A stretch of 64,000 nucleotides of DNA from Candidatus Kapaibacterium sp. (GTDB lineage Bacteria; Bacteroidota; Ignavibacteria; Kapaibacteriales; UBA2268), in NCBI GenBank assembly GCA_963664875.1, contig OY761611.1, forward strand, positions 1,312,001 through 1,376,000, given 5' to 3'. The position numbers and the translations under genes were made by a program. Shown here piece by piece: positions 33,533 to 64,000 of this stretch (within the stretch, counting starts at the first letter, position 1; the number at the start of each line of letters is the position of its first letter). The notes beneath the pieces are model-generated. The model did not search any database. It was not told where the DNA came from and was given only the letters and a program-made list of their open reading frames with translations.

Positions 33533-33584
33533 TGTAGAGAATATGTAGAGGATTTGTAGAGAAATTTTTGTACCTTGTGTAGAG
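33533..33584 (+). repeat. Four TGTAGAG direct repeats (candidate integrase arm-type sites)
   Basis: At 33533, 33544, 33555 and 33578 (spacing 11, 11, 23). Confidence 0.65.
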
Positions 33585-33607
33585 GTCAAAATACTGAAGG
33601 TGAAGTA

Positions 33608-34819
33608 GTGAATTATAACTTTTATATAAAAGTAGAAAAGAACGCAAAAACAAAGCATCCTAATTGTATTATACAGCTATATATACGTGACAAGCGTGGA
33701 ACCATCTATTTTAATACTGGTGAAAAAATCGAAGAAAGGTACTGGGATAAAAACAAGCAAGTTGTGAAAAAGTCATATCCTGGTTCAACAGAGTTAAACT
33801 CATATCTGCGTAGCTACAAAGAAGATATAGAAAGAAAAATTCGTACAATTCAAACAGAGAAGCCAAGTATATCTCTTGCTGAACTAAAAAAGATTCTAAA
33901 GACTCCTGTCAAAGAGGCAGAAATAGTTAAAGTTAAATTCTTGGATTTGTTTCAGAAATTCATTGAAGGTAGAAGAACAACGCTAAGTCATGCAACATAT
34001 AAAAAATACAAAACACTCTTCAACCATCTGAAACAGTTTCAGAAAAAATCTAAACTCAAACTGGATGTTGAAACGATTAATGTAGATGTATTAGATCAGC
34101 TACAAAATTACTTCCTAAAACAGGGTCACAATAATAATACTACCTTCAAGCATATTCAAAATCTTCGGACATTTCTGAATTGGGCATTGGAAAGGGATTT
34201 GACTGACAATATAAAATATCAGAAATTTAATCCAATCAAGCGTGCTAATCCCGAAAGTATAGCTCTGACCAAAGAAGAATTAAAACTGATTACTGACTGT
34301 AAAGATTTAACACCAAGTCTTGAAAAAACAAAAGACCTCTTTCTTTTTATGGTTTATACAGGTCAACGGTACTCAGATGCAGTGCAATTTAACAAGGATG
34401 ACGTAAAAAATGATGTCTGGTATTTTAGGCAAAAGAAAACAACAAAGGTTATGAAAATTCCACTTAGTCGCCCAGCATTGGCAATTTTAGAAAAGTATAA
34501 TTACCAATTGCCAGTAATGAGCAACCAAAAAATGAATGCTAATCTAAAGTTTTTGGGAGAAAAGGCTGGTCTCAATGAAATCGTATCACAAGTCAAATAC
34601 AACGGTGCAAATCAAACAGTTGAAAGATACCCTAAATACAAACTACTTACAAGCCATGTTGCACGTCGAACATTTGTGTCTTTAGCAGCTTATGGCGGAA
34701 TAAGTCAACAAGTTATCAAATCATTTACGGGGCATAGCACAGATAGAATGGTATCTCAGTATTTTATTGAAAATCCGATGCAAGCCATAGATTCTATAAA
34801 TAATATATTTGAGAATTAA
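33608..34819 (+). CDS. Tyrosine integrase (Bacteroidota Arm-binding/SAM-like type)
   Basis: Catalytic set GQRYSD, K, HVARR, GHS, Y; GTG start at 33608 is inferred. Confidence 0.93.
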   Translation: MNYNFYIKVEKNAKTKHPNCIIQLYIRDKRGTIYFNTGEKIEERYWDKNKQVVKKSYPGSTELNSYLRSYKEDIERKIRTIQTEKPSISLAELKKILKTPVKEAEIVKVKFLDLFQKFIEGRRTTLSHATYKKYKTLFNHLKQFQKKSKLKLDVETINVDVLDQLQNYFLKQGHNNNTTFKHIQNLRTFLNWALERDLTDNIKYQKFNPIKRANPESIALTKEELKLITDCKDLTPSLEKTKDLFLFMVYTGQRYSDAVQFNKDDVKNDVWYFRQKKTTKVMKIPLSRPALAILEKYNYQLPVMSNQKMNANLKFLGEKAGLNEIVSQVKYNGANQTVERYPKYKLLTSHVARRTFVSLAAYGGISQQVIKSFTGHSTDRMVSQYFIENPMQAIDSINNIFEN

Positions 34820-34845
34820 TTCATTATTCCTCCCCTCTTTATACC

Positions 34846-34883
34846 ATCAGGTCAATAGCAAAAAACTACTGACCTGATTTTTT
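34846..34883. terminator. Terminator between the integrase and hsdM
   Basis: ATCAGGTCA...TGACCTGAT followed by a T-tract. Confidence 0.7.
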
Positions 34884-36399
34884 ATTTCGATTTTATCGTA
34901 TCCATGATTTCTTTGAATGATGTAAGACCTGATTCAAGATTTTGGATTATCTCCTCAGCCAATTCGTCGGGGTCAGGGAGATTGTCTAAATCTGTTAAGC
35001 TTTTGTCTTTTAACCAAAAGATATCAAGATTTGTTTTATCTCTTGCTAATATTTCTTCGTAGGTAAATTTTCGCCAACGCCCTTCGGGATTATCTTCACT
35101 CCATGTTTCTACTCGTTTGTTGCGGTTATCAGGATTGTAACATTTTACAAAGTCTTCTAAGTCTGCTGTTGTTAAAGGCTTTTTCTTCAAGGTATGATGT
35201 ACATTAGTTCGGTAGTCATATATCCATACTTCTTTTGTGTGAGCTTCTTTGCTTGCTGCTCGATTATCAAAGAAAAGAACATTTGCTTTTACGCCATGTG
35301 CATAGAATACACCTGTAGGCAATCTTAGGATTGTGTGTAAATCAGTTGTAAGCATTAATTGCTTGCGGACTTCTTCTCCTGCCCCACCTTCAAACAAAAC
35401 ATTATCAGGTAGGACTACAGCTGCTTTTCCTGTTGTCTTTAGCATTGATTTTATATGCTGAAGAAAGTTAAGCTGTTTGTTCGAAGTTGTTTCCCAAAAA
35501 TCCTGTCTGTTATAACTTAAATCTACTTTTTCAGCTTCATCATCTTCGTTTGTTACAGTATAGGAGCTTTTTTTACCGAATGGCGGATTTGCCAAAACAT
35601 AATCATAAGTTTTACTATCCGGTGCAACCAAAGCGTCATTAGGCGAAATAAACGGGTCGCTTGCTATGTCGCCTATATTATGTAGATAGAGATTCATCAG
35701 ACACAATCTACGTGTATTGGCTACAATTTCATTTCCGAAGAAGGTATCGTTCTTGAGGAATTCCTTTTCTTCTTTATCAAGCTGATTGTTTGCAATTATC
35801 CAATCATAAGCTGCAAGGAAAAATCCTCCCGTACCACATGCAGGATCTGCTATTGTTGCTTTGGGTTTAGGTTGAATGCACGCCACCATTGTTTTAATCA
35901 ATGCACGGGGAGTAAAATACTGACCTGCTCCTGATTTAGTATCTTCTGCATTTTTTTCAAGTAAGCCTTCGTAAATTTTACCTTTTATATCCGCACCCAT
36001 CAAAGTCCAATTTTCTTTGTTTATCATTGTGATAATTCGGGACAGCTTTGCGGGATCCTGTATCTTATTTTGGCTTTTGGTGAATATCTGACCTAACATT
36101 CCTTTTTCGGTGCTTAAGCTACGCAGCATCTGCGAATAAAATGATTCTAACTCCGCACCTCTTTTGCTTGAAAGTGTTTCCCAGTCGCAGATTTCTCCGT
36201 CTGTAATCTCATTGCCTTCGGTATCTTTCATCCGTGGAAATTGCAGTCCTTTAAAGTAAGGAGGTTTGTTCATTTCGTCTGCCATCTTAAGGAATAACAG
36301 ATAAGTTATTTGCTCAAGATAGTCGCCATAACTAACGCCATCGTCTCTTAGAACCCCTGCGAGATTCCATATTTTTGATATAATTGCTGAATCTGACAT
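34882..36399 (-). CDS. hsdM: Type I RM methyltransferase subunit
   Basis: GQYFTPR, DPACGTGGF and NPPF motifs; start MSDSAI is inferred. Confidence 0.95.
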   Translation of the reverse strand: MSDSAIISKIWNLAGVLRDDGVSYGDYLEQITYLLFLKMADEMNKPPYFKGLQFPRMKDTEGNEITDGEICDWETLSSKRGAELESFYSQMLRSLSTEKGMLGQIFTKSQNKIQDPAKLSRIITMINKENWTLMGADIKGKIYEGLLEKNAEDTKSGAGQYFTPRALIKTMVACIQPKPKATIADPACGTGGFFLAAYDWIIANNQLDKEEKEFLKNDTFFGNEIVANTRRLCLMNLYLHNIGDIASDPFISPNDALVAPDSKTYDYVLANPPFGKKSSYTVTNEDDEAEKVDLSYNRQDFWETTSNKQLNFLQHIKSMLKTTGKAAVVLPDNVLFEGGAGEEVRKQLMLTTDLHTILRLPTGVFYAHGVKANVLFFDNRAASKEAHTKEVWIYDYRTNVHHTLKKKPLTTADLEDFVKCYNPDNRNKRVETWSEDNPEGRWRKFTYEEILARDKTNLDIFWLKDKSLTDLDNLPDPDELAEEIIQNLESGLTSFKEIMDTIKSK

Positions 36400-36406
36400 A
36401 TTTATT

Positions 36407-37153
36407 CTATTTTTTGTGATTATCAATATTATTTACTTCATCTGTTTCAAGAAATGATACTTCCCGATACATTATAGTCAATCCTTTCCCTTTGATCGTT
36501 GCTTTATATGTATCATAACCTAAATGGGTAGCTTCTATTCGTCTGATGAATGTATAAAAATCTTTTTTGTTATCGCAACCCTTTTCAAAATCATACTCCT
36601 TGGTTTTGAATACAAGAATTAGCAATACATCTAAATCTAAATCTGATTGCGTTCCAACTGTTGAATAAAGCATCTGATAACGCAAAGTAAAATCTTCTTC
36701 TTTTACTTCTTTCAGATTTACCTTCAATAGATTTTCTATTCTTTCAGGAGCATTGGTATTATTACCGTTTAATTCCTTTACCTTAGCTCTTTGGTAAACT
36801 GTTGCAACTGTGTCGCCAAACGGCTCATCAACTTTTGCTTCGAGACCAATAAAGATTGATTGCTTTGATTCTGTTTTACCCCAAATAGCTAAGTCATGTT
36901 CCCTGCCATGACCGAATTCATCAAATCTAACTTCGAATTCGGGTTCTGCCTTTTCTAAAGTAACTTTGGTATTAAGTACATTTGAGAGCATTGATTCTAA
37001 TTCTGCAGCTCCATTACGATTTAAAATAAAATCCGCAAGTGAATATGCACTTCTGTTTTCTTTCCAATGTCTTCCTTTCTTGCCACTTCCGAATGCAGCT
37101 TTCTGCCAATCATCCATGGTCTTAATTTCTGTGTTTCTATATTCGATTTTCAT
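36407..37153 (-). CDS. Predicted PD-(D/E)XK nuclease (DUF6946-like)
   Basis: HWKENRSAYSLA, HDLAI...LEAKVDEPFG and LRYQM motifs. Confidence 0.65.
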   Translation of the reverse strand: MKIEYRNTEIKTMDDWQKAAFGSGKKGRHWKENRSAYSLADFILNRNGAAELESMLSNVLNTKVTLEKAEPEFEVRFDEFGHGREHDLAIWGKTESKQSIFIGLEAKVDEPFGDTVATVYQRAKVKELNGNNTNAPERIENLLKVNLKEVKEEDFTLRYQMLYSTVGTQSDLDLDVLLILVFKTKEYDFEKGCDNKKDFYTFIRRIEATHLGYDTYKATIKGKGLTIMYREVSFLETDEVNNIDNHKK

Positions 37154-37174
37154 TAGTTTTCCAATAGATTATTA

Positions 37175-38158
37175 TTATCTGTTTCTATTTAAGATGCTAA
37201 TTACTAATTTTTTCACAGCATTTGCTTCATCAGATTTGCTAATTGCAATAAATAAAGTCAAAGCGGCAAGGGTATTATTATCAATAATTAGAGAACCATC
37301 TTTTTTCAGTAACATATTGTTGCGTTTAAGGAAGTAAACAAAGCAAGCTGCGGCTATTCTCTTATTCCCATCCACAAAAGAATGATTTTTAACAATAAAA
37401 TAAAGTAGATTAGCTGCCTTTTCTTCTATTGTTGGATACAAATCATTACCTGCAAAACCTTGAGCAATTTGGTTAATTGCACTTACAAAACTTCCATCTT
37501 TTTGAAGAGCAAAAACAGTAGATTCAAAATCTGAATACATCTCCTGAATCAAGTGCATATAATCATTATACGATGGGTAAATAGTTTCTTTTTGAGATTC
37601 ACCTGCTATATCTAATGCCTCGTTGTCATAATCATCAAGTAGTGCTAATCCGTTCGAAAACAACTTAAAGACTTCATTATTTTCTTTATTGGCTTCTTCC
37701 TCAATCACTCTACTTACAATTCGAATGCCTGTTTTTAGATATTCTATTTCCTGCTGTTTTTGAGCTAAACGCTTTTCATTTAATGCATATCCTTGGACTA
37801 AATAATCTTTTAATCGTTGAGTTGCCCATTGACGAAATTGTGTACCTCTTTGTGATTTTACCCGATACCCAACAGAAATAATAACATCAAGATTATAATA
37901 GTCAACTTTTTTGTTCTGAGTTTTACCCTCTATCGCACCATGTTGAGTGGTATGTGCAAATTTTGCACATACCATATCCTTATCCAACTCACCTTCTTTA
38001 AAGATATTTGAAATATGCCTGCTTATTACCGTCCTATCTCTTTGAAAAAGATCTGAAAGTTGTTCACGACTCAACCAAACAGACTCGTTTTCAAATTGAA
38101 CATGTATTTCAGTATGAGTATCATTAATTTTGTAGATTTCTATTTTCTTCCCCATCAC
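37175..38158 (-). CDS. RhuM-like DNA-binding domain fused to a Fic/Doc domain
   Basis: YNLDVIISVGYRVKSQRGTQFRQWAT; Fic motif HSFVDGNKR. Confidence 0.9.
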   Translation of the reverse strand: MMGKKIEIYKINDTHTEIHVQFENESVWLSREQLSDLFQRDRTVISRHISNIFKEGELDKDMVCAKFAHTTQHGAIEGKTQNKKVDYYNLDVIISVGYRVKSQRGTQFRQWATQRLKDYLVQGYALNEKRLAQKQQEIEYLKTGIRIVSRVIEEEANKENNEVFKLFSNGLALLDDYDNEALDIAGESQKETIYPSYNDYMHLIQEMYSDFESTVFALQKDGSFVSAINQIAQGFAGNDLYPTIEEKAANLLYFIVKNHSFVDGNKRIAAACFVYFLKRNNMLLKKDGSLIIDNNTLAALTLFIAISKSDEANAVKKLVISILNRNR

Positions 38159-39660
38159 TTCTCCTTCTTAATTCTTTCCAAGAGGATGCTTGCAGGTTCG
38201 TAGTCGGGGGCTTTTTTGCATTCGGCTATTTCAGATTCGGAGAGAAGCTCTCCTTCAAATGCTTTTTTTAGTATTCTTTGGCGAAGTGCTTCTGCTTTTT
38301 CTAAAGATTCTTCTATTGTTTTTTCCACCTGATCGCATACTGAAAGTCGTGATTCTATTTCTTTGACTATTTGGTACTGCTCTTGGAGGGAGCAGATTAC
38401 AGTTTTAGATTTATTCAATTTCTCTAAAGTCAATCTCGTTATAGCAACACCTGCAATATTACTTAGCATTCTTTTACGAGTCACTTCAGAATTTAAAAAA
38501 TAGGCTACAAATTTAGGTGTTATATATTTTTGATTAAATCTGAAAACTCCAACGCTTGAAAGCAATGAAAACTCCTCTTTCAAAGTATTTACAGTCGCGA
38601 TACCTGTTGTAGCTCCGTCCTTAATATATAGTATATCACCTTCTCTCACATCTGCTCTTGCAAAGATTGAATGATGGTCTTCGGCAGAGACATATGTAAT
38701 ATTTGATAAATTAATTCCATTTTCTTTGATGTTTTTAGCTGTTATGTACTTAAAATCACCGTGAGCAAAACTTTTAGGAGAAAAATGAGTTCCATCAAAA
38801 ATTCTATCCGCAATTATGCCGAATGTATACCATTCCCAATTTTTTGGAATTGATGGTAATAATAGTATATCTTCTTCTGGCACGGAATCTTTTTTAATAT
38901 TATTCTTCGGCTTTGCAGGTTTCTTGCCTTCTTTTCCATTTTCTTCCCATTCTTTTACTGCTATTTTCCAATCAGATAGTTGTTTTTCGTAATATTTTTT
39001 ACGTTCTTCTTTTATCTGTTCAAGAAGTTCTTCTGCTGTAGGTAGATCTGTTTGCTTCTCTCTCCACTCTTTAGTCAACTCCCCCTCAAAAGCCTTTTTG
39101 AGGACAGACTGGCGGTAAATTTTAAGTTGATCTTGGGCTTTTTTTAAATCTTCTATGCCTTTATCAAGCGAAGTAAACAGATTTTCTATTTTTGTTACTA
39201 TGGCACGTTGGATTGGTAGCGGAGGGACTTTTAGAGGTAATCGTTTTAAAGCACTTTGTGTTAACTTCAATCTTGTTGTGCCAGTTACATATTCCCTTAG
39301 TTGCATTTGATTCAAATAATGTAATAAAAAATCATTGTTAAAATGAGAATTCAAGATATGAGCATGATTATTTACCCATGTTTTACCTGCTATTTTGTAA
39401 GCAACATTTCTTGTCATATCTAAAAATGGAGCACCATCTTCGCCTATAACTATAAACTCGCCATCTGTTAAATAATCATCAATAAAGCCAACCTGACCTG
39501 TCGCTCCAAAGTATGGATATAAATCTACTTGCGATTTACCTTCAATACGTTTTCTTCTTTCTGTCGCATTTATTGGTTTCCTTAAATTATCCAATATTGA
39601 ACAGACTTGTTCTAGTTTACACTCTATCCAATCTTCTTTCATCTTATTTTCCTTTCCCAA
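38155..39660 (-). CDS. hsdS: Type I RM specificity subunit
   Basis: Two TRDs and the conserved PPLPIQRAIV, SVLKKAFEGEL and ILKKAFEGEL helices. Confidence 0.93.
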   Translation of the reverse strand: MGKENKMKEDWIECKLEQVCSILDNLRKPINATERRKRIEGKSQVDLYPYFGATGQVGFIDDYLTDGEFIVIGEDGAPFLDMTRNVAYKIAGKTWVNNHAHILNSHFNNDFLLHYLNQMQLREYVTGTTRLKLTQSALKRLPLKVPPLPIQRAIVTKIENLFTSLDKGIEDLKKAQDQLKIYRQSVLKKAFEGELTKEWREKQTDLPTAEELLEQIKEERKKYYEKQLSDWKIAVKEWEENGKEGKKPAKPKNNIKKDSVPEEDILLLPSIPKNWEWYTFGIIADRIFDGTHFSPKSFAHGDFKYITAKNIKENGINLSNITYVSAEDHHSIFARADVREGDILYIKDGATTGIATVNTLKEEFSLLSSVGVFRFNQKYITPKFVAYFLNSEVTRKRMLSNIAGVAITRLTLEKLNKSKTVICSLQEQYQIVKEIESRLSVCDQVEKTIEESLEKAEALRQRILKKAFEGELLSESEIAECKKAPDYEPASILLERIKKEK

Positions 39661-40906
39661 TTTTCTCTAAAAGACCTAACATATTCCCTGGCATAGTAGG
39701 TGAGGATTCGTCTTTGAGCAATCCTGAATCTGCACGGCTAAATAGAGATTGTAATACTATCTCTCTTTCTCTATCACTCACAGCAGAATCTTTATGTAAT
39801 GCTAAGAAAAGATAGGTTAACTGTTCCTTCTCCTCAGCATCGCGAGCCAAGTGAAAAGCACTCAACGTAAGTTTACTCAAATGTTTAATCCCAAAAGCAA
39901 GCAAAGATACAAAAGTTATAAATGTAATCGACCATTTGATTGCAGTACCAGTTTCTTTGAAGATTCCTTCCATTATTCCATTAGATAAACAGAATAAAAC
40001 CCCGACTGCCAATACTATTCCACCAATGGAAACACCCTTTAACCATTTATTATGTTTATCACCTTCAGCTTTCAACGTGTCTGCTCTTTGTTTCCAATAG
40101 GCGGCAGGTTCTTTAAGCTTAAGAAGATTTTCGTAAGTATCTTTTAAATCCGTGATTTCTTGTTTTGATTTGGCATACCAGTCATCAAATGATTTTTCTT
40201 TTTCAGTTTTAACATCTTCAATCTTTTGAGCATACTTTTCACCATCTTTAGTAGCTTTATCCAAAACACCTTTGAGATGAGCTTCCGATTCAGTAAGATA
40301 ATTTGAAAAATCATTTCTAAGTTTACTCAAAGAAGATTTTTCACTATCATATCTTTTGGTAATTTCAGTATAATCACGTTGGATGAATTCGTATGCGATA
40401 ATATATGCTATGAAATTTTTCGGAGTATTTGGTGGGTTTATATTCCCATTTCTTTCAAAAGAAATTAAAAAATCAAATACTTCTTGATTGTATTTTGGTT
40501 GCTCTTTGTGTAGTTTAATCAAAAACTCCGTTTCGGGACGGTCATATGTTATTATTTTACGTCGTGTATTATTGTCTGTATAATTTGCAAAATGATTAAT
40601 CCATTGTTTGCTTAGCTCTTGTTTATCAATTTCTTTAGAAATATTGAGAAATTGGATAAGATGCTCATGAAATCTTTTAAAATATGAAAATGAAGGATCT
40701 AAATTAGAAGGTAATTCTCCTAAACTCTCCCAACCTTTTTTTTGTTGTGACGCATAAGTGTATATAGCAATAAAACCGACTTGATTGCAAGTAAGCATAG
40801 GAAAATCAGGAAACTTCCAATCAATTGAAACAGAATCAAACCATTCAGGATATTGGGTTTCTTTTATTTTGGCAAGGAGTTCTTTTTTAGTCATAGTAGT
40901 AGCCAT
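39644..40906 (-). CDS. Coiled-coil plus 2-TM protein (DUF6161-like)
   Basis: PAAYW, two TM helices, HLARDAEEKEQLTYLFLAL...LQSLFSRADSGLL. Confidence 0.65.
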   Translation of the reverse strand: MATTMTKKELLAKIKETQYPEWFDSVSIDWKFPDFPMLTCNQVGFIAIYTYASQQKKGWESLGELPSNLDPSFSYFKRFHEHLIQFLNISKEIDKQELSKQWINHFANYTDNNTRRKIITYDRPETEFLIKLHKEQPKYNQEVFDFLISFERNGNINPPNTPKNFIAYIIAYEFIQRDYTEITKRYDSEKSSLSKLRNDFSNYLTESEAHLKGVLDKATKDGEKYAQKIEDVKTEKEKSFDDWYAKSKQEITDLKDTYENLLKLKEPAAYWKQRADTLKAEGDKHNKWLKGVSIGGIVLAVGVLFCLSNGIMEGIFKETGTAIKWSITFITFVSLLAFGIKHLSKLTLSAFHLARDAEEKEQLTYLFLALHKDSAVSDREREIVLQSLFSRADSGLLKDESSPTMPGNMLGLLEKIGKGK

Positions 40907-40968
40907 GGGTACATTATAATTATAGTTTTGATTTGTGTTGCATTTGGTTGATTTGGAGTTGGTGTCTT

Positions 40969-42438
40969 TTACTCTTCTTCTTCTTCTTCAGTTTCATTTA
41001 TTACTGATCCAAGTAACAGAAGCAATTTATTAGAATCTAAATTTAAGTCAAGCGATAATAACTTTCTATCTAATTTCCACTTTCTTCCGTACCATTTTTC
41101 AATTTTCAACAATTCTATATCTTTCTCATTAAATTCAGCATGCCCCATTACATCAGTTCCAAACAATCGACAAACATTGTTGACTACATATTCTATTTCT
41201 GCAAATGCTACGTAATCGAATCTTATTCCTCGGTTGTTTAAGAAATAGGAATATTGAATATCATCTATTTGGTGAACTTCCATCATATTAAAATAGGAAA
41301 AGTACTTTTTGCTCAAGTATCTATGCATTATCTTATCTTCCAAATCACCTTCTGTAATGTAACTGTTCTCTAATGGGATAACTTCAACATCTTGCTTCAA
41401 TTGATTTATAAAATCACCGATATTTGCAAAATTTACACCCAAGTTTTGATATTCCTCTAAAAATTCATCCCACCCCATCACTTTAGTATGAAAACCAAAT
41501 AGGTTATAAAGAAATTTTGATTTTTTTTGCAAACCTTTATCTTCAGAAATCAAATAATCGCAATGAATTGCATAAAATGAATGAACTGCATCTTGTATCA
41601 TATTTGCGAATCTTACCTTACTGTTCTTTTCTCCATCAATCCCAAAAACATTCAAATACAGGTATGTCAATGTATATTGGATATAAAAATTATCTGCCAA
41701 AGGTATTTTAGAAATTGAACTAAAAGATTCTTCAACTACTTCATAAAAAGATCTTCCAATTTGAGTAAGCTTAAATTTGTCATCAAAGTCAATATCATCC
41801 ATATTTATTTGCAACTTTTTGATTTGATTCTCTTCCATGCCAAGTCTGCGGGCAAGTCCATATAGCTTTTCGTCATCATAAAATTTGTCCGCAATACTAT
41901 TGGTAAGTTTTACCCAATCAGATTGTTCATATTCTCTATTTTCTATACCAAGCTTGTTTATATAATCTACCATGTCAGCTGACGGATTTGTTGGTAAGTT
42001 TGAAATAACATATTTCTCGGGTATGTTTGTTATCATTTCGTTTAGAGCAATAGCACTATCTAAAATGACAGAGTACTGTCCAAAAAAAGGTAATTCTTTA
42101 AGTGCTGAAATCATATCTGAATTGAAATCTATATCAACTTGGCTTCTGCTATTAGAACCAATTGCTTCAACATTTTTAAATTTCACAAGAGGAAGTATTT
42201 TACTCATTGAAACATTTTGATTTTGAATATCAAAATACAAAAAATGATTTGTGAATTTACCAATATATGTTAGCTCTTCATACTTAATATCAGTTTTATC
42301 TTGCTTTAAATCATCTAAATGTGCAGGAGAATAAAGGAAAAACAATCTATCATCAGATAATAGATTCTCTTCGATCATTTTATCTTTTTGTTTTTTCAAA
42401 TTCGAAAAAATGTTCTTGTCAAAGTAGATTCTATACAC
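40969..42438 (-). CDS. Hypothetical protein with PIN-like acidic motifs
   Basis: IYFDKNIF, YSPAHLDD and DAVH...CDYLISED. Confidence 0.55.
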   Translation of the reverse strand: MYRIYFDKNIFSNLKKQKDKMIEENLLSDDRLFFLYSPAHLDDLKQDKTDIKYEELTYIGKFTNHFLYFDIQNQNVSMSKILPLVKFKNVEAIGSNSRSQVDIDFNSDMISALKELPFFGQYSVILDSAIALNEMITNIPEKYVISNLPTNPSADMVDYINKLGIENREYEQSDWVKLTNSIADKFYDDEKLYGLARRLGMEENQIKKLQINMDDIDFDDKFKLTQIGRSFYEVVEESFSSISKIPLADNFYIQYTLTYLYLNVFGIDGEKNSKVRFANMIQDAVHSFYAIHCDYLISEDKGLQKKSKFLYNLFGFHTKVMGWDEFLEEYQNLGVNFANIGDFINQLKQDVEVIPLENSYITEGDLEDKIMHRYLSKKYFSYFNMMEVHQIDDIQYSYFLNNRGIRFDYVAFAEIEYVVNNVCRLFGTDVMGHAEFNEKDIELLKIEKWYGRKWKLDRKLLSLDLNLDSNKLLLLLGSVINETEEEEEE

Positions 42439-42491
42439 ATAACCCTCTTTTGTCTTTGAAACAATAAACTGATTTTTACATTACCATACCC

Positions 42492-45305
42492 TTACGCAGC
42501 CAAAGCCTCATTGAGTTCATCAATAATTTTTAGCATCTCATCACCGAACAGTTGATACATCATGCCTCTGCCACCTTTTGCATCAAACGGAGTATAATCA
42601 AGGTCATCCAATTCGATATGGTAAGAGCTAACGACATGGTCTTTAATCATTCGCAGCCAATCCATTTGCTCAGGTGTGAAGCGGTTATGTTGCCCTGCAT
42701 TCTGTTGGAATATCCACTTTTTGAAATTATCATCAACTGTTTTATCATAAGGATTTAGTTCCTTATCTATACCACACGCACGGCGGATAAGTGAAACAAG
42801 GGCTGTTAGCTCATCTTTCGGTCTGTTATGTTTGACCTTTTCAATAGTTGCATAAGCATTCCAAACATATTCAGGAGCGAGTTTAGGTTTCGCACTTCTT
42901 AGCTTACTAAGCACCTCCTGAAGCATTTTAAAGGTAATCTCCCGTCTATTATAAGGCTGATTATAAAATATGCTCAGAGCTTTTATTTCGTCCTTGTTCT
43001 GTTCCAAATATTCCGTAAAATCCTTAATAGTTTCTGCGGCAGTTTCTTTGGTGAAGCTGTCCCATTCGGATTTTGTAACTGTATCAATGTTCACATGGTC
43101 GATAATCTGTTCGTGCTCTTTCCTAATGTTTTCTATTTTATCATTCAGTTTGCCATTGAAGTTTTTAGCAGCTTCACGAATCAAATTTTCCTGCACTTCC
43201 TTTTTAGTATCTTCAATTAGCTTAGGCGTTCGTTCCTCTTCAGGGATAGAAGCAATCTTTTCGTTTGTAAGATTTTCAATCACATCAACATCATAAGCCT
43301 TGATGAGATCCTGCGAAATCTGTTTCAGGTCTTTACCACCAGTATGTTCAATCAGTTCCATTCTTTCATTTTCTGTGAGTTGCTTATCTAATCTGACAAG
43401 CCGATTGGCAAGTGACAGGAACAAATCCTCGTCAATATGTCCCACAGTTACAGCACCTAAAAGATCTTTCATCGGCACAGATGGCTTACGTTCGAGTGGT
43501 CTGCTGTCAGTTTTTTTAGATTTAGTAGCACCAATAGCATCAACTATAACGAAGTGTGTTTTATGGTTTGCCGTGCTTGAGACTTGTTTTAATAACTCAT
43601 TATCAATTGTCCGTGTGCCACGACCTTTCATCTGTTCAAAGTAATTGACCGACTTAACATCACGCATAAACAGAAGAACTTCTAACGGCTTAACATCAGT
43701 GCCTGTGGCAATCATATCAACAGTAACTGCAATACGAGGGTTATAAGAATTTCGAAATCTGTTTAGTAAAGATTTTGGGTCTTCGTCAATTTTGTAAGTT
43801 ATCTTTTTACAGAAGTCATTGCCGTTATCAAATTCTTCACGGACAATACTTATTATATCATCTGCATGTGAATCAGTTTTAGCAAAAATCAGAGTCTTAG
43901 GAACCTCATACTCACCATTCTTATCGATACGATTTGGGAATATTTCCTTTTGAAGTGCACTCTTAAATTCTCTTATAATATTTCTTATCTGACTTGGGTT
44001 AACCACCTTTTTATCTAAATCATTTCTTGCATATTCTGTATCTTCATCTTCCTGCTGCCAACGTCTCTGACGTGTAAGTTTATCTCGCCTGTCAACAAAC
44101 CACCCTGCCTTAATCACATCACCGTTTTTAGATATTTCTGTTTCAATTGTATAAACATCATAAGGCACATTAACACCATCAAGAACAGATTGTTCATAGG
44201 TATATTGGCTGACAACGTTTTCGTTAAAGAAACCAAAAGTCCGTTTATCGGGTGTGGCAGTAAGTCCAATTAGGAATGCGTCGAAGTAGTCAAGCACCTG
44301 TTTCCAAAGATTATAGATGGAACGGTGACACTCATCAACCACTATAAAATCAAACTGCTCAATAGGTACTTTAGCAGAGTATTCTACAGGAAGTGCTTTC
44401 TTTTTCGAGGTTTGTTTCTGCAACCAAGTGCTTTCATTAGGATTATCCATTTCAGCAGAGTCTTCTAAATCCTCTCCCTTAAGAATGGAATACAAGCGTT
44501 GTATAGTGGAAATACATACTTGGCTATCGTCAGAAATAAAGCTTGAAGATAATCTCTGCACATTGTATAATTCTGTAAACTTACGGTTGTCATCATTCGG
44601 CTTAAAGTTCATAAACTCTTGCTCTGCTTGCTCACCCAAGTTTTTTGTATCCACAAGGAAAAGGATTCTCTTTGCATTGGCGTGTTTTAAGAGACGATAT
44701 ACAAAAGTACAAGCAGTAAAAGTCTTACCGGCACCTGTAGCCATTTGAATAAGAGCTTTGGGTCTATTCTTTTTGAAAGATTCTTCTAAATTATTGACAG
44801 CTTCAATTTGTGCAGGTCGCAATCCATCAGTGATCAATTCAGGTACATCCAGTAAACGAGTGCGAAGCGTTTTCTCCTGCTTCAGCCACTCTGCAAAAGT
44901 AGATGGTTTATGAAAGCTAAATACTTCTCTTGCCCGTGGTTTTGGGTCTCTATAATCTGTAAAATGTGTTCGAAGTCCTGTAGATTCATATACAAACGGT
45001 AAGGGTTCATTATCAAGATATTTAAGTTTGGCATTAGCATATCGGGTTGATTGCTCTTCCACAGTAGTAAGCTTGTGACCAGAGTCGTAAGGTTTTGCTT
45101 CAATTACACCAACAGGTTTGCTATCAACAAACAACACATAATCAGCAGGTCCGACATCAGTCTGATACTCTCTAACAGCCACACCATTGTTAGCGTGCAA
45201 GTTTATATCATCTTTTGATTGTACAAACCAACCTGCTTGAGATAACATAGAATCTATTTTGTCTCTTGCAATTTGCTCAGGATTTTGATTTACATTTTGT
45301 GGCAT
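42492..45305 (-). CDS. hsdR: Type I RM restriction subunit (EcoAI/EcoEI-like)
   Basis: ADYVLF..VIEAK nuclease motif, MATGAGKT, DECH, TATP, QMKGRGTR. Likely start 45305 (or 45314), not 45485. Confidence 0.95.
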   Translation of the reverse strand: MPQNVNQNPEQIARDKIDSMLSQAGWFVQSKDDINLHANNGVAVREYQTDVGPADYVLFVDSKPVGVIEAKPYDSGHKLTTVEEQSTRYANAKLKYLDNEPLPFVYESTGLRTHFTDYRDPKPRAREVFSFHKPSTFAEWLKQEKTLRTRLLDVPELITDGLRPAQIEAVNNLEESFKKNRPKALIQMATGAGKTFTACTFVYRLLKHANAKRILFLVDTKNLGEQAEQEFMNFKPNDDNRKFTELYNVQRLSSSFISDDSQVCISTIQRLYSILKGEDLEDSAEMDNPNESTWLQKQTSKKKALPVEYSAKVPIEQFDFIVVDECHRSIYNLWKQVLDYFDAFLIGLTATPDKRTFGFFNENVVSQYTYEQSVLDGVNVPYDVYTIETEISKNGDVIKAGWFVDRRDKLTRQRRWQQEDEDTEYARNDLDKKVVNPSQIRNIIREFKSALQKEIFPNRIDKNGEYEVPKTLIFAKTDSHADDIISIVREEFDNGNDFCKKITYKIDEDPKSLLNRFRNSYNPRIAVTVDMIATGTDVKPLEVLLFMRDVKSVNYFEQMKGRGTRTIDNELLKQVSSTANHKTHFVIVDAIGATKSKKTDSRPLERKPSVPMKDLLGAVTVGHIDEDLFLSLANRLVRLDKQLTENERMELIEHTGGKDLKQISQDLIKAYDVDVIENLTNEKIASIPEEERTPKLIEDTKKEVQENLIREAAKNFNGKLNDKIENIRKEHEQIIDHVNIDTVTKSEWDSFTKETAAETIKDFTEYLEQNKDEIKALSIFYNQPYNRREITFKMLQEVLSKLRSAKPKLAPEYVWNAYATIEKVKHNRPKDELTALVSLIRRACGIDKELNPYDKTVDDNFKKWIFQQNAGQHNRFTPEQMDWLRMIKDHVVSSYHIELDDLDYTPFDAKGGRGMMYQLFGDEMLKIIDELNEALAA

Positions 45306-45468
45306 ATTAAGCATTGCTAAAGCATTTGTATTATGATACTTACATTTTATATTAGAATGTTTTTGACTTGCCTTACAAAAAGAACATGTTAAAAAACACA
45401 AAAGACAAGTCGTAATATAATATATCAATCTTAATATACTAATACTAAATGAAGTACACAAACGAAAC

Positions 45469-45485
45469 ATGACAGAGACTGACAT
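45469..45485 (+). promoter_or_regulatory. AYGACA-N5-TGACAY box 1
   Basis: ATGACA-gagac-TGACAT upstream of the riboswitch; a second copy lies at 45934. Confidence 0.45.
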
Positions 45486-45547
45486 ATTTTATTCATTAGT
45501 ATGTATTTTTGTAACGAATTTCAATTTTTGACGTATTATTTAGATAT

Positions 45548-45665
45548 AGTATCAAGAACACTTTAAGTAGTGTGCCAACCGAGCAAGGTAGCCACGGTGG
45601 CAAATGGATACGGCTTTTAAGCAAAAAAGTCCGCTACTTGATACTCCATTTGTATAATCTTGGAG
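45548..45665 (+). ncRNA. SAM-I/IV-like riboswitch with translational expression platform
   Basis: P1 GUAUC(45549-53)/GAUAC(45607-11); J1/2 AAGA; P2 ACACU/AGUGU; P3 GCC-AA-CCG/CGG-U-GGC; junction AAAUG; P5 GGCUUUU/AAAAGUC; PK-2 AGGUAGC(45586-92)/GCUACUU(45633-39). Confidence 0.8.
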
Positions 45666-45674
45666 AGAGAAATC

Positions 45675-45947
45675 ATGGCATCTACAAACAAAACCTTTCG
45701 AACCTTGACAATTCTGAAGATGTTCCTAAAAGGACTAAAATTGACAAAAAGAGAAATTTTGCTACAATTAGATTCTTCAGGTGATGATGTAACTCAGAGA
45801 ACTATTGAAAGAGATTTGCAAGTGCTTCAGGAGATGCAACTTGTTAATAGTTTTGAATCTTATGGTCAGGAAAAAGTTTGGGAAGCATGGGGATATGCAA
45901 AAAAAACAGTAGCAAACTCAAATTTATACATCTACGACAATATTTGA
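45675..45947 (+). CDS. Winged-HTH protein resembling the N-terminus of WYL regulators (WYL domain absent; possibly truncated)
   Basis: RTLTIL...LTKREI...VTQRTIERDLQVL; SD UGGAG 9 nt upstream of ATG 45675. Confidence 0.7.
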   Translation: MASTNKTFRTLTILKMFLKGLKLTKREILLQLDSSGDDVTQRTIERDLQVLQEMQLVNSFESYGQEKVWEAWGYAKKTVANSNLYIYDNI

Positions 45948-45950
45948 CAC
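45934..45950 (+). promoter_or_regulatory. AYGACA-N5-TGACAY box 2
   Basis: ACGACA-atatt-TGACAC followed by TATATT, upstream of rtcB2. Confidence 0.45.
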
Positions 45951-45993
45951 TCATAGAAGTATATTTCAGCAATTATAATTTAAAAGAAAATCT

Positions 45994-47105
45994 ATGTTCA
46001 AAGAAATAAACAACAAAATCAAGCTAATAACCAACGACAAAAATTGGGTTGAGAGCGAAGCAATCGAACAACTTAAGCTTGTTTCTGAACTTGAAGGTGT
46101 TCAACAAGCTATTGGGCTTCCCGACATCCATTCAGGACCAGTAGGAGTTACCATAGCAACACAAAAGATTATTTATCCGCATTTAATTGGCAATGATGTG
46201 GGATGTGGAATGGCATTATTCAAACAGACCTAAAGAAATCTAAAATCAAAAGAGATAAGTGGGTCAGAAAGCTATCAGGCTTAGAGGATTCTTATGATGG
46301 AAATATAAATGCTATTATAGAAGAAGCAGGTGTTGAATCTACCGCATATGATTCTTCTATTGGTACAATTGGTGGTGGAAACCATTTTGCAGAGCTTCAA
46401 TCTATTGAAAAGGCTTTTGATGAAAACGCTCTTTTAGATTTAGGAGTTGATTCAAAGAATCTTGTATTATTAGTACATAGTGGTTCAAGAAGCCTTGGAT
46501 CTGCAATTTTTCAAGAATTTGCAGAAACAAACACTTCTACTGGGCTCAAAATAGAATCTGAAGAGGCAACTAAGTATCTTCAGCAACATGATAATGCGGT
46601 TCATTGGGCAAAACTAAGTAGAAAGCTGATTGCTGAAAGGTTTTTAGAACAGTTAGGTAGTTTTTCAAAGACGGTTTTAGATGTAGAACACAACTGTATT
46701 GCTAAAACAACTGTTGGTCATCAAGAATACTACTTACATAGAAAGGGTGCGGCTCGTTCAGACCTTGGTGCTGTTGTAATTGCAGGGTCTCGTGGTACAT
46801 ATAGCTACCTTGTGCTACCTATTGGTGGTCAGGAACAAAATCTTTTTTCACTTGCTCATGGTTCGGGTAGAAAGTGGAAACGTAAAAACGCTAAATCTAT
46901 CCTTGGTGATAAATATACAATTGATAAAATGCAACTCACCGAAATTGGAAGTGCCGTAATTTGTGAAGATAAAAATCTCTTATACGAAGAAGCACCACAG
47001 GCATACAAGAATATTGAGCATATAATTGCAGCATTGGCAGATGCAGGAATAATAAAAGTACTGGCTCAGCTCAAACCTATCATTACTTACAAAACAAGGA
47101 AATAG
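45994..47105 (+). pseudogene. rtcB: RtcB2 (PrfH-associated RNA ligase), split by a 1-nt frameshift near 46220
   Basis: PDIH, GNDVGCGM | QTDLKK, GTIGGGNHFAE, HSGSR, HN, HRKGA, HGSGR, EEAPQAYK. One added base restores GMALFQTDL. Confidence 0.85.
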
Positions 47106-47107
47106 TT

Positions 47108-47758
47108 GTGCTCAGTGAGAAATTTAATGTATTGAGTATGCCTTCAACTCTACGTAGAATAAGAGGATTTGATGCAGTAAATAAAGTTGTAGAAAGTAAA
47201 TACAAGCAATTTAGTAGCATTATAAAAAAGCTCGATCAAGATATAAGCTTTGCTCATAGAAATACAAAAACACAAAGCGATGAAGAATGGCAGGATATTG
47301 TGCAATCAGTTAAGAAATTGAATGAAAGATTCCGCGAAATTAATGTCCTTATCAAAGATGAAGTAAAAAGGCAATATAAAGTCGCTGAGGCAAGAGTAAA
47401 TGATAATGATGATTGGGTTCGAGATTTTGAAATTGAATGGGAAATTGAATTTTATATAGGTGAGGATGATCCTGCCTATCAAGAAGATGATGATAATTAT
47501 ATAGCTCGTTTTTCCGACAGTTTGAGCTATGATTCTTCTGATAAATTGGATGATTATATTGAAGAATTCTATTATTCAAACAATTACGATCATAATGAAT
47601 TTAAAAATTTGTCAGATGACAAATCTGATTTAAACAGCTTTATACATACATTTATGCTGCATGAACTATATGATCATCAGCATCTGTCATTTGAAGAAAT
47701 CTCACGCATAAAGATTATATGGGTTGACTTCAAAACTATTTATCAATATTATAAATAA
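47108..47758 (+). CDS. Hypothetical acidic protein between rtcB2 and prfH
   Basis: 216-aa ORF tightly packed in the operon; no family recognised. Confidence 0.6.
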   Translation: MLSEKFNVLSMPSTLRRIRGFDAVNKVVESKYKQFSSIIKKLDQDISFAHRNTKTQSDEEWQDIVQSVKKLNERFREINVLIKDEVKRQYKVAEARVNDNDDWVRDFEIEWEIEFYIGEDDPAYQEDDDNYIARFSDSLSYDSSDKLDDYIEEFYYSNNYDHNEFKNLSDDKSDLNSFIHTFMLHELYDHQHLSFEEISRIKIIWVDFKTIYQYYK

Positions 47759-47772
47759 ACGGAAATAAGAAT

Positions 47773-48396
47773 TTGAATTGGTTACAACTTACTGCAGGTA
47801 GATGTCCCGAAGAGTGTGCTTGGGTGGTAAATAAGGTTCTTAATGAAATTACTAAAGAAGCAGAGGGGTTTAAACTTAAGTTAGATATACTTGAAAAAGT
47901 CAGTGGACAGGAACGAGGCACTTTGAAATCAGCACTCCTAAGTATAGAAGGTGATAATTTAAAATCATTCTTGGAATCATGGACTGGTACTATTCTTTGG
48001 ATAGGACAAAGCCCTTACCGTAAAAACCATAAAAGAAAAAATTGGTATATCGGCGTTAATCGCTTGACAATGCCAAAGCCAACTGAATTTTCAGAGAATG
48101 ATATAAAATTTGAAACTACGCGTTCTTCAGGAGCGGGAGGACAGAATGTTAACAAGGTGGAAACAGCAGTCAGAGCAACTCATATCCCTTCGAATATATC
48201 CGTTTTAGCAAGTGAAGAACGCTCCCAACTAAGGAATAAAAGTCTTGCTCTCTCACGATTGTTTGATATGCTTAAACATATTGACGACAAGATGCAGTTG
48301 GATGCCGAAAGGGATCGTTGGTTAAATCATTGGGATTTGGAAAGGGGTAATCCAATCCGAACTTATGTTGGTGAAGGATTTAAAAGGAAGTCGTGA
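47773..48396 (+). CDS. prfH: Peptide chain release factor H
   Basis: LQLTAGRCPEEC, GTILWIGQSPYR..HKRKNW, GAGGQNVNK, ERSQ..NK; downstream of rtcB2. Confidence 0.93.
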   Translation: MNWLQLTAGRCPEECAWVVNKVLNEITKEAEGFKLKLDILEKVSGQERGTLKSALLSIEGDNLKSFLESWTGTILWIGQSPYRKNHKRKNWYIGVNRLTMPKPTEFSENDIKFETTRSSGAGGQNVNKVETAVRATHIPSNISVLASEERSQLRNKSLALSRLFDMLKHIDDKMQLDAERDRWLNHWDLERGNPIRTYVGEGFKRKS

Positions 48397-48467
48397 GGTT
48401 TTAAACTTCTAATATTTGGTTCGATTGGTGTAAGATTGCTGCCCCATGGTGACCAATTAGAATATTA

Positions 48468-48900
48468 TTGATATTTCTGTAAACTACACCACCTATTTCG
48501 GTAAAAGAACTCCACTTTTCACCAAACTAAACATGGCACAAAAAATGATACTCCTCTAATCGATAATAATGATTACTGATATAGGGTATTGTGTATGGCT
48601 AACAAGAGTATTTCATTGATAGATATCAGACAAATTCTAAGAATGCACCACGAGCATCATTCCATGCGTAAAATAGAAAACTATCTTGGAGTTGCACGCA
48701 AAACCGTGTCAAAGTATATTATCTTGGCTCAATCAGCAACAATTACTTACCCTGATATTCAACACCTTTCTGATGAAGAGCTGTTAGCAATAATCTTAGA
48801 ACAGAAAAACTTGAAATGAGCAATTTTAATATCTTGAGTCACAGTTTGAAGACTTTAAAAAGAAGCCCAAAAAGACAGGTCTAAGCAAGTTTTTTTCAGG
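48468..48900 (+). mobile_element. IS21-family left-end remnant with truncated istA (48595-48819)
   Basis: MANKSISLIDIRQILRM...SMRKI...LGVARKTVSKY...LSDEEL, preceded by degenerate repeated CCAC boxes. Confidence 0.7.
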
Positions 48901-63890: not shown

Positions 63891-64000
63891 GTTGTTTGAG
63901 GGGAAATTTCAATCTATATCACTATTTTATATATCTAAAATTGATTTAATTTACTTTCCCTAAAACCAAATTTCTAAACTCTTGATTTCCATATCTTCTA

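Follow-up and report, generated by a model that had tools for sequence, protein, structure and literature searches.

The window analysed here is a 64,000-nucleotide (nt) stretch of the complete genome of a Candidatus Kapaibacterium species (contig OY761611.1), in which a predicted SAM-I/IV riboswitch precedes a four-gene operon on the forward strand. The aptamer (45544..45638) is followed by a gene for a 90-amino-acid (aa) probable winged-helix DNA-binding protein (45675..45947, +), rtcB2, coding for an RNA ligase of the release-factor-H-coupled type (45994..47105, +), a gene for a 216-aa protein (47108..47758, +) and prfH, coding for peptide chain release factor H (47773..48396, +). On the upstream side lies a divergent gene for HsdR, a type I restriction subunit (42492..45485, −; ResIII 145.1, EcoEI_R_C 142.6 and HSDR_N 28.5 bits). 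Downstream of prfH is a 76-aa helix–turn–helix (HTH) open reading frame (ORF) (48589..48819, +) resembling the N terminus of an IS21 or IS1 transposase, with sub-threshold hits to HTH_11, HTH_38 and transpos_IS21.

The product of the first gene is termed a probable winged-helix DNA-binding protein because every family hit falls below curated cut-offs: its Pfam matches are to FUR (20.7 bits), Arg_repressor (19.2 bits) and HTH_12 (17.3 bits), it matches the N-terminal HTH of a PADLOC WYL model with an E value of 8.5e-4, and its PDB hit is to the ArgR N-domain (E 0.07). A search of 5.8 billion proteins returned one related cluster, at 92% identity, and 311 pattern matches in metagenome contigs gave no confirmed further copy of the gene. 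An HTH regulator had been named in the first-pass annotation as the target of the switch; the sub-threshold HTH hits are consistent with this, and no family hit above the curated cut-offs backs it.

The second gene, rtcB2, is split in the window into two frames (45994-46233 and 46203-47105) that score 99.3 and 369.3 bits against NF007153 and 85.4 and 335.2 bits against TIGR03073, for which the rtcB2 of paralog A scores 437.2 bits (cut-off 271.8). The window sequence is one C short of paralog A, and the contigs of all four sequencing runs carry an extra C behind 46220, so the frameshift is probably an assembly error. PrfH matches TIGR03072 with 245.4 bits (cut-off 166.65) and RF-1 with 86.5 bits. 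The 216-aa protein between them had no match of note in Pfam, NCBIfam, PADLOC or PDB, and is conserved in paralog A and at locus L086. By likeness to known systems, RtcB2 and PrfH encoded in one operon would constitute a 16S rRNA repair module. The target of the switch is non-metabolic, as first proposed: a winged-helix gene heads an RtcB2/PrfH operon that holds no methionine or SAM gene. The rtcB2 gene starts 47 nt past the winged-helix stop codon; as it lacks translational coupling to the regulated gene, we propose that the switch reaches the repair genes indirectly.

Both copies of the operon are housed in integrase-bearing islands with type I restriction–modification, CRISPR–Cas or Abi genes, which agrees with the defence-island setting originally suggested for the locus. 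The operon is part of a duplicated segment of 19.7 kb whose homology with the second genomic copy begins at 45509, 35 nt before the aptamer; hsdR lies outside it. The two paralogous copies are 95.7% identical, and the switch platform is kept in both. A conserved block directly 5′ of the aptamer (45509..45543, +) forms the left edge of the duplicated segment and recurs in the leaders L008 and L009 of two other genomes. On the basis of this homology it is a putative promoter/operator, its promoter role being presumed because no sigma-70-type site passed a simple scan.

At gathering thresholds, a cmscan of the whole window returned exactly one match, to RF01725 (SAM-I-IV) at 45544-45638 (+). It scored 68.1 bits against a gathering score of 41.1, 27 bits over the cut-off (E 3.6e-9), covered model positions 1-99 of 99 without truncation, and made RF01725 the best-scoring family of the SAM clan at these positions; a genome-wide search again gave 68.1 bits, and 14 control genomes gave no match to the model. 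The first-pass annotation had named SAM-I/IV as the class and put forward a comparison with Rfam models as the check on it, and the assignment is borne out by this significant, full-length match. The SAM-I-clan core motifs that it listed are likewise all readable in the sequence and the consensus alignment. P1 pairs GUAUC (45549-53) with GAUAC (45607-11), and is followed by J1/2 (AAGA, 45554-57), a P2 that forms a simple hairpin of 5 bp (45558-73) and lacks the internal loop (k-turn), a P3 (45574-45601) with CAAC opposite GGUG, and J3/1 (AAAUG); P4 is absent, and a short hairpin 3′ of P1 (45613-22) leads into an A-rich tail. All strongly conserved positions of RF01725 are matched (AUCAAGA, CAACC, GGUG and the GAU that closes P1), and the core, comprising P1 closed by AU/UA pairs, AUCAAGA and the CAAC/GGUG columns, is invariant in 12 related leaders. 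We take the SAM-contacting bases of the aptamer to be those of the SAM-I structure. Judged by eye, P3 has a conserved A-C mismatch at a position that is G-C in the family consensus.

The helices are supported by covariation, another check proposed at the outset, across 60 distinct related aptamers. In this set, 89.0% of cells were paired, compared with 27.8-52.7% when the partners were slid, and the covariation score was 0.269, compared with 0.034-0.102 for slid partners and attained by none of 500 shuffles. Eight of the 17 aptamer pairs vary on both sides; because the set was chosen by a DNA pattern in which much of P1 and P3 is fixed, the pairs that carry information are 4-98, 37-82, 46-73 and 47-72, together with P2. 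By these measures, the RNA at 45544-45638 is a genuine riboswitch of the SAM-I/IV class, with SAM as its presumed ligand.

The window aptamer is one of five RF01725 copies in this genome, and none of the five precedes a methionine or SAM gene; judged from their neighbourhoods, all five are predicted to govern accessory genes that sit in mobile or defence islands. The models for SAM-I (RF00162) and for long-loop SAM-II (RF01726) had no match in the genome, and metK, which lies 18 nt after the preceding gene, had no Rfam match at E<=1 within 3.4 kb around it. RF00521 had no match either, but as its control matched no genome, this negative carries no weight. In an evenly drawn sample of the phylum, seven RF01725 loci outside this genome exceeded the cut-off: two precede NhaC-type transporters, one an ADP-ribosylglycohydrolase operon and three genes of unknown family, and the seventh (L099) has no ORF of at least 60 aa within about 360 nt. 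The wider phylum survey found many SAM-I/IV leaders before genes of unknown function or genes for ADP-ribosylglycohydrolase or a NADAR-like protein. The combination of riboswitch with rtcB2–prfH was seen at three loci only, in two species of one genus. A 200-aa protein of the other copies formed four clusters in a protein homology search, and the gene downstream of L008 resembles, by eye, a class-V aminotransferase or a cysteine desulfurase. A phage origin of the aptamer was considered on account of four pattern hits in viral contigs and rejected. These were judged to be chance matches, because long ORFs enclose three of them, the fourth is immediately ahead of one, and none has the P1 closing strand.

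Between the aptamer and the first start codon lie a switching block, CUUGAUACUCCA (45637..45648, +), and the Shine–Dalgarno (SD) sequence UGGAG (45661..45665, +), which is read 9 nt 5′ of the start codon. In alignment A1 of 12 leaders, the block (columns C96-C105) is invariant except for one purine/U column, and its flanks are variable. The block takes part in two competing pairings. The unconstrained minimum-free-energy (MFE) fold of the window leader (−35.9 kcal/mol) contains a 9-bp helix of 45548-56 with 45637-45, whose 5′ arm (45548..45556, +) comprises the P1 5′ strand and the AAG of J1/2. This alternative helix is also the MFE solution in 9 of 11 block-carrying related leaders. Its duplex energy is −11.2 kcal/mol in the window, a value reached by none of 300 shuffles, and −9.5 to −14.0 kcal/mol across all 12 leaders; in each of the 10 leaders tested, only 0-2 of 300 dinucleotide shuffles attained it. 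When P1 was forced and J1/2 kept single-stranded, the block paired instead with the SD sequence in all 11 leaders examined by constrained folding, at a cost of 1.8-5.0 kcal/mol (2.6 in the window copy). This pairing uses CUCCA (45644-48), which is complementary to the SD sequence, and the forced folds thereby bear out the OFF state claimed in the first-pass annotation. The SD helix has duplex energies of −6.6 to −12.7 kcal/mol in the 12 leaders; in the window it has just 5 bp and −6.6 kcal/mol, close to the −6.9 kcal/mol of L102, compared with −8.8 to −12.7 kcal/mol in eight other leaders.

Transcription attenuation was rejected for the window copy, as a terminator scan found none between the aptamer and the start codon and only one terminator-like site (46482-46501) in the whole of 45300-48900. 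A metagenome search for the same platform returned one contig, which has an intrinsic terminator in place of the SD helix, with the switching block as the 5′ half of the terminator; this relative appears to use an equivalent switch logic at the level of transcription. The aptamer class, the two mutually exclusive folds and the conservation of those folds are all computational results. The folding models suggest that the leader acts as an OFF switch on translation, with the logic of both folds common to 11 of 11 related leaders.

We put the probability at roughly 80% that the leader is a SAM-I/IV-class translational OFF switch acting on the first gene of the operon of winged-helix gene, rtcB2, 216-aa ORF and prfH. 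In the mechanism that we propose, binding of SAM would lock P1 (45549-53:45607-11) and leave the block at 45637-45648 free, so that its CUCCA could pair with UGGAG at 45661-65 and close the start region. When SAM is low, the block would invade P1 through pairing of 45637-45645 with 45548-45556, wrecking the ligand pocket and leaving the SD sequence open, and the winged-helix protein would be made. The signal might then be relayed to rtcB2–prfH by the small protein itself or by stabilization of the mRNA. The exclusive folds agree with the direction of control originally claimed, in which expression rises as SAM falls; we infer both that SAM is the ligand and that the switch operates in this way in the cell.

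The ON state had been drawn differently in the first-pass annotation, with CAAAUGGA (45601..45608, +) capturing UCCAUUUG (45645-45652) and so removing the P1 3′ strand and the anti-SD sequence together. That helix, of 8-9 bp, is present in the window copy, where it has the best duplex energy (−12.1 kcal/mol, compared with −11.2 kcal/mol for the conserved helix), and it would drive the switch the same way, so that it could reinforce the conserved helix. However, it is absent from the MFE fold and is strong in the window alone: its energy weakens to −7.7 kcal/mol in paralog A, −7.4 kcal/mol in L012 and −7.0 kcal/mol in the ortholog L009, and lies between −1.2 and −5.1 kcal/mol in the remaining eight leaders; moreover, it is broken by T45605A, the base found in the contigs of runs X3 and X5. 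Because it crosses the conserved helix, the two cannot form together as simple secondary structure. We consider it improbable that the ON state takes this form: the conserved ON-state helix is that of 45548-45556 with 45637-45645. The 7-bp pseudoknot claimed between L3 and the 3′ tail can likewise be read in the window copy. AGGUAGC in the L3 arm (45586..45592, +) can pair with GCUACUU (45633-45639), with 7 bp including one G-U, and this possible PK-2 reaches −9.3 kcal/mol in the window copy and paralog A, but it is not kept in the ortholog L009 or the other non-paralog leaders (−1.4 to −4.6 kcal/mol in ten).

Two further readings leave the folds in place and question the ligand or the purpose of the switch. 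One is that the RNA keeps the SAM-I/IV fold and senses a different molecule, for example SAH or some other adenosyl or sulfonium compound. This would account for the absence of SAM-metabolism genes under all five copies, and would suit the many relatives in the phylum that precede genes of unknown function; other riboswitch families include classes with altered specificity. The match at every strongly conserved RF01725 position and the wide margin above the cut-off speak against such a change, as does the presence of the pattern-defined aptamer subgroup before MTHFR and MetK genes in other genomes, which fits SAM, and we rate this the least probable of the readings weighed. Slightly less remote, though still improbable, is that the riboswitch is a passenger, an island promoter–leader cassette that recombined in front of a horizontally acquired rtcB2–prfH pair without any adaptive link. 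RtcB2 of this type exceeded the cut-off in only one of the 401 genomes sampled from the phylum, that of the window itself, and the left edge of the duplicated segment lies just outside the aptamer. L008 has the same promoter block and aptamer 5′ half joined to another 3′ half that lacks the switching block, which indicates mosaic recombination. With the link confined to three loci, from two species of a single genus, recombination could have produced it recently by accident. Against the passenger reading, the platform is intact and tuned at all three rtcB2 loci, and both paralogs have retained it despite their divergence. The preferred reading remains a SAM-responsive translational switch on the first gene of the operon.

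In the account of Weinberg et al. 2010 (PMC2864571), the SAM-I/IV class ('SAM-I-IV-variant') has a P2 that lacks the internal loop (k-turn) found in SAM-I and SAM-IV, is devoid of P4 and carries a hairpin on the 3′ side of P1, and the window RNA shares this core, the loop-free P2, the missing P4 and the hairpin after P1. Crystal structures of the env87 representative are listed as 4L81 and 4OQU (PMC8525861). In contrast to the crystallized RNA as summarized there, the peripheral L3/tail pseudoknot that aids folding is not conserved in the leader group of the window. The genes under control also set these copies apart, since the usual context of SAM-I/IV, methionine or SAM metabolism or transport, fits none of the five in this genome. 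SAM-I (S-box, RF00162) and SAM-IV belong to the same clan, with the same ligand-pocket architecture, and they switch OFF by the same logic, the P1 5′ strand belonging both to P1 and to an alternative helix. SAM-I differs in carrying a P4, in the k-turn of its P2 and in acting for the most part through terminators.

On the protein side, work on E. coli describes RtcB2–PrfH as a module that rescues ribosomes with cleaved 16S rRNA and religates the cut (PMC9223846, PMC9304027, PMC13166195). The window likewise has a release-factor-coupled RtcB and PrfH in one operon; unlike that module, the pair is split here by the 216-aa gene, and an orphan winged-helix gene and a SAM riboswitch come before it. 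Elsewhere, rtcBA is governed by the CARF-domain sigma-54 activator RtcR, and WYL/HTH regulators adjoin RNA-repair and defence genes. The operon of the window resembles these systems in placing an RNA ligase under a dedicated sensor, and the N terminus of the 90-aa protein is weakly like the HTH of WYL regulators, but there is no CARF or WYL domain here and the sensor would be an RNA that reads a core metabolite, presumably SAM. Among the papers searched, none connects a SAM riboswitch to rtcB, prfH, anti-phage systems, restriction–modification or SAM lyase, and the only one to mention both prfH and a riboswitch is unrelated; nor could SAM-like variants near rtcB or WYL genes, as mentioned in the first-pass annotation, be traced in the literature searched. 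The regulon is new to that literature; the riboswitch class is already known.

SAM riboswitches are feedback devices of sulfur and methyl metabolism. A switch placed before a regulator and a repair operon, and not before a methionine gene, suggests that low SAM is read as a starvation or alarm signal, and a ribosome rescue and repair module raised as SAM falls is the likely physiological meaning. A broader idea, which we hold to be doubtful but less so than the alternatives above, is that in this lineage SAM-I/IV switches have taken on a new role as alarm sensors. SAM could then fall through a toxin, through starvation or through a phage enzyme that degrades SAM and so disables the adjacent type I restriction system, which depends on it; the fall would derepress accessory modules of defence islands, here the regulator and RtcB2–PrfH, as an RNA-based guard of a cofactor targeted by anti-defence proteins. 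To our knowledge, no system other than RtcB2–PrfH mends ribosomal RNA that has been cleaved. The targets of SAM-I/IV leaders across the phylum form a list of candidates for SAM-linked functions. If the SAM response holds in vivo, the switch would be the first regulatory input for RtcB2–PrfH and would provide a testable idea, that cells take the level of SAM as a sign of danger or starvation in controlling the genes of defence islands.

Scanning the whole window against Rfam at gathering thresholds returned a single match, to the SAM-I/IV riboswitch family (RF01725) at 45544–45638 on the forward strand, which clears the gathering score of 41.1 with 68.1 bits (E = 3.6e-9) and spans model positions 1–99 of 99. 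Sequence and Rfam alignment together resolve, on the same strand, P1 (GUAUC 45549–53 with GAUAC 45607–11), J1/2 (AAGA, 45554–57), a plain 5-bp P2 hairpin (45558–73), P3 (45574–45601, with CAAC opposite GGUG), J3/1 (AAAUG) and a small hairpin (45613–22) followed by an A-rich tail; the functional leader begins near 45509 and ends at the start codon, 45675–77. The RF01725 model found no match in 14 control genomes. The full-length match, the readable elements and the blank controls confirm the SAM-I/IV element that a first-pass annotation had placed at 45548–45677, and show that the window RNA is a genuine SAM-I/IV aptamer and belongs, as an ordinary member, to a class already described. Given that all strongly conserved RF01725 consensus positions are matched, and in view of existing knowledge of the class, we infer that its ligand is probably SAM.

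The genome (one contig, 3.83 Mb) holds five RF01725 matches above cut-off, at 69.3, 68.1, 61.7, 61.7 and 53 bits. In a set of 61 related genomes, this one counted, six have an RF01725 match: besides this genome, 5 of the 36 others from its own taxonomic family, and none of the 24 from the order's other families. A DNA pattern derived from the aptamer core retrieved 84 stretches from a species-level genome collection, Bacteroidota in the main, and 58 of them satisfy a stricter expression that adds the closing strand of P1. From the pattern stretches and the relatives we aligned 60 distinct aptamers with MAFFT, entering P1, P2 and P3 as pairs. Standard pairs fill 89.0% of cells, compared with 27.8–52.7% when the 3′ partners are slid, and both sides change at 8 of 17 pairs. 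Covariation in homologs, whose absence the first-pass annotation had listed among its refuting conditions, is present, with a score of 0.269 against 0.034–0.102 for slid partners, matched by none of 500 shuffles; because the selection pattern fixes much of P1 and P3, its weight rests on pairs 4–98, 37–82, 46–73 and 47–72 and on P2. In the Prevotella group, where the MAFFT alignment of P2 is imperfect, P2 is 61.3% paired.

Folding covered the span from aptamer to start codon in twelve leaders of this genome and its relatives. A few bases past the tail, 11 of the 12 carry a block, CUUGRUACUC, that is absent from leader L016; in an alignment of 12 leaders this switching block is invariant save for one column and lies between variable flanks. 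Left free, the window leader reaches −35.9 kcal/mol in a fold whose 9-bp helix joins 45548–45556, an arm made up of the P1 5′ strand and the AAG of J1/2, to 45637–45645, and the SD (UGGAG, 45661–65) is not sequestered. This long-range alternative helix is the minimum-free-energy solution in nine of the 11 block-bearing leaders, the exceptions being L013, which forms it partly, and L091, which favours the SD hairpin. When P1 was enforced and J1/2 kept unpaired as a mimic of the bound state, the block paired with the SD in all 11 leaders, bearing out the OFF-state pairing that had been proposed for the window; this P1-enforced, SD-closed fold costs 1.8–5.0 kcal/mol (2.6 in the window). With L102 added, duplex energies in 12 of 12 leaders put the alternative helix at −9.5 to −14.0 and the SD helix at −6.6 to −12.7, and in each of 10 leaders 0–2 of 300 dinucleotide-shuffled downstream-leader sequences matched the alternative helix. 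Taken together, the folding, duplex-energy, shuffle and conservation results describe what is, in these models, a classical SAM OFF-switch design: bound ligand would lock P1, locked P1 would release the anti-SD block, and the released block would close the SD. The conserved two-state platform is thus shown, as modelled, to predict expression at ligand scarcity. No terminator-like site was found between aptamer and start codon; on metagenome contig L113 (1201–1320, reverse strand) the block CUUGAUACU supplies the 5′ half of a terminator hairpin with a U tail, and this is the same competition in transcriptional form, working through termination.

The first-pass annotation had ascribed the ON state to another helix, CAAAUGGA (45601–08) with UCCAUUUG (45645–52). 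It exists in the window copy, at −12.1 kcal/mol, but weakens to −7.7 in paralog A (the second genomic copy of the operon), −7.4 in L012, −7.0 in the ortholog leader L009 and to between −1.2 and −5.1 in the eight that remain, and contigs of two public sequencing runs (X3 and X5) have an A at 45605 that breaks it. As it also crosses the conserved alternative helix, it contributes to the ON state at most as an addition, in the window copy alone, if anywhere. The 7-bp L3/tail pseudoknot of the same proposal (PK-2, 45586–92 with 45633–39) is likewise present here and in paralog A (−9.3 in both) but weak elsewhere (−1.4 to −4.6). Since L3/tail pairing can also be seen by eye in sequences of Flavobacteriaceae-type relatives, PK-2 may be optional in this leader group.

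The switch opens onto a 90-aa ORF (45675–45947, forward strand) that had been read as a helix-turn-helix regulator. All its matches are to winged-helix DNA-binding domains, but none passes threshold: FUR (20.7 bits), Arg_repressor (19.2), HTH_12 (17.3), the HTH end of a PADLOC WYL model (E = 8.5e-4) and the ArgR N-domain in the PDB (E = 0.07). Among 5.8 billion proteins its relatives form one cluster. The next gene, 46 nt further on, is rtcB2, encoding a release-factor-coupled RtcB, which is split over two frames (NF007153, 99.3 + 369.3 bits; TIGR03073, 85.4 + 335.2 bits). The break at 46220–46221 has one C fewer than the intact paralog, and contigs of all four public runs compared carry the extra C behind 46220; in a 1,413-nt contig of run X1 it is the sole difference from the window. 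These contigs make an error of the assembly, probably in a homopolymer, the most likely cause of the frameshift, and not a pseudogene, with the caveat that X1 may be the source sample. PrfH scores 245.4 bits to TIGR03072 (cut-off 166.65). All three operons of this type encode, between rtcB2 and prfH, a 216-aa protein (47108–47758) for which no known family was found; it could be a novel partner for RtcB2–PrfH. Published accounts report that RtcB2–PrfH in Escherichia coli rescues and religates ribosomes whose 16S rRNA has been cut by colicin E3 (PMC9223846, PMC9304027, PMC13166195). Directly behind prfH in both copies, a 76-aa ORF (48589–48819) looks like the HTH end of a transposase of IS21 or IS1, perhaps left over from the vehicle that delivered the module. 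Of 401 genomes sampled from the phylum, this one alone has an RtcB2 above cut-off, so the operon was probably acquired and then set behind a kind of leader that was already widespread in the lineage.

The non-metabolic context noted for the window copy extends to the whole genome, where no Met/SAM gene follows any of the five riboswitches. Copy A (genome 2131662–2131756, reverse strand) heads a 95.7%-identical paralog of the operon. The further copies C, D and E, with the switching block present, lie at genome 1377046–1377137 (reverse), 2110420–2110511 (forward) and 20883–20975 (reverse) (L003, L004 and L005), and head operons of a 200-aa and a 155–360-aa protein family. These pairs or triplets, behind the identical C and D and behind E, matched no Pfam, NCBIfam or PADLOC family and have very few relatives; for the first protein just four related clusters were retrieved. 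Copy C's second gene terminates within the window, at 63946. By eye, an ACGTA or TCGTA motif lies about 20–35 nt before the aptamers of the window (45528–45536), L003, L005, L011 and L012; it precedes otherwise dissimilar leaders and could be part of a common promoter or operator. The gene metK starts 18 nt after the preceding gene, with no leader (L144, genome 3645968–3649381), and the 3.4 kb surrounding it gave no Rfam match at E ≤ 1.

From 45509 to past the window end, a segment of about 19.7 kb (genome 1357509–1377184) recurs inverted at 2131791–2110373 with 81–99.3% identity and a divergent middle. Each repeat end lies 35–47 nt outside an inward-facing SAM-I/IV riboswitch, so promoter–riboswitch cassettes mark both borders. 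Left of the first copy, the region 33575–45485 encodes a tyrosine integrase (33575–34819) and a type I restriction–modification system (HsdM, RhuM/Fic, HsdS, DUF6161 and HsdR); a DUF6946 gene also lies there. To the right, past the window, follow a DnaB-like helicase and Cas6, Cas8b, Cas7, Cas5 and Cas3, the cas genes being type I-B-like and lying some 4.7 kb past copy C. Flanking the second copy are another integrase (29% identical), an Abi_2 protein and a second HsdR. The label of defence island thus fits the surroundings but not every gene, because the repeat itself holds T9SS-sorted, EcsC/TerB and zinc-ribbon proteins.

In an evenly drawn sample of the phylum, RF01725 exceeded cut-off in 8 of 151 genomes, this one counted. 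The seven other loci precede NhaC-type transporters (two), a small ORF and an ADP-ribosylglycohydrolase (one, L104), a homolog of the 200-aa family with a metallophosphatase behind it (one) and genes with no known family (two); one has a terminator and no clear gene. Among 20 representative downstream proteins of the pattern-defined set, Pfam gave five matches above cut-off (two MetK-like proteins, MTHFR, an AAA ATPase and VF530), three below it and none for 12. That this subgroup heads MetK-like or MTHFR genes in some genomes speaks for SAM as the ligand; accessory genes with no known function are nonetheless common among its targets. In Prevotella-type loci (L018, L030, L051, L079, L084 and L090), the leader precedes a NADAR-like protein and a large family with no known function, with a MetK paralog next in L018, L084 and L090; the first gene scores 63.9 bits to the NCBIfam 'NADAR family anti-phage protein' (cut-off 240).

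For the physiological reason behind the switch we infer, as the ordinary reading, nutritional gating, in which accessory genes and a ribosome-rescue system would rise in starvation; no MTHFR gene was found in this genome, so SAM may track methionine supply. Low SAM might instead be an alarm signal for the operon, which stands back-to-back with hsdR. Phage SAM lyases disarm SAM-dependent restriction and BREX; in our literature search riboswitch and SAM lyase co-occurred only in unrelated papers, and we hold this reading to be unlikely. It seems improbable that the riboswitch is a passenger cassette with no adaptive logic for the operon. Locus L008 (1432–1597, reverse strand; equal to L032) would suit such a history: it has the same promoter block and aptamer up to P3 but another L3, hairpin and tail, and the switching block is absent, which points to a recombination breakpoint inside the leader.

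Among the papers covered by our literature search, none describes the genes downstream as a regulon of this SAM-I/IV leader. The RNA class is already known; what appears to be new is the regulon. Judged from the genome sequence, the core SAM genes of this bacterium appear to be riboswitch-free, and five accessory operons appear to be under SAM control.
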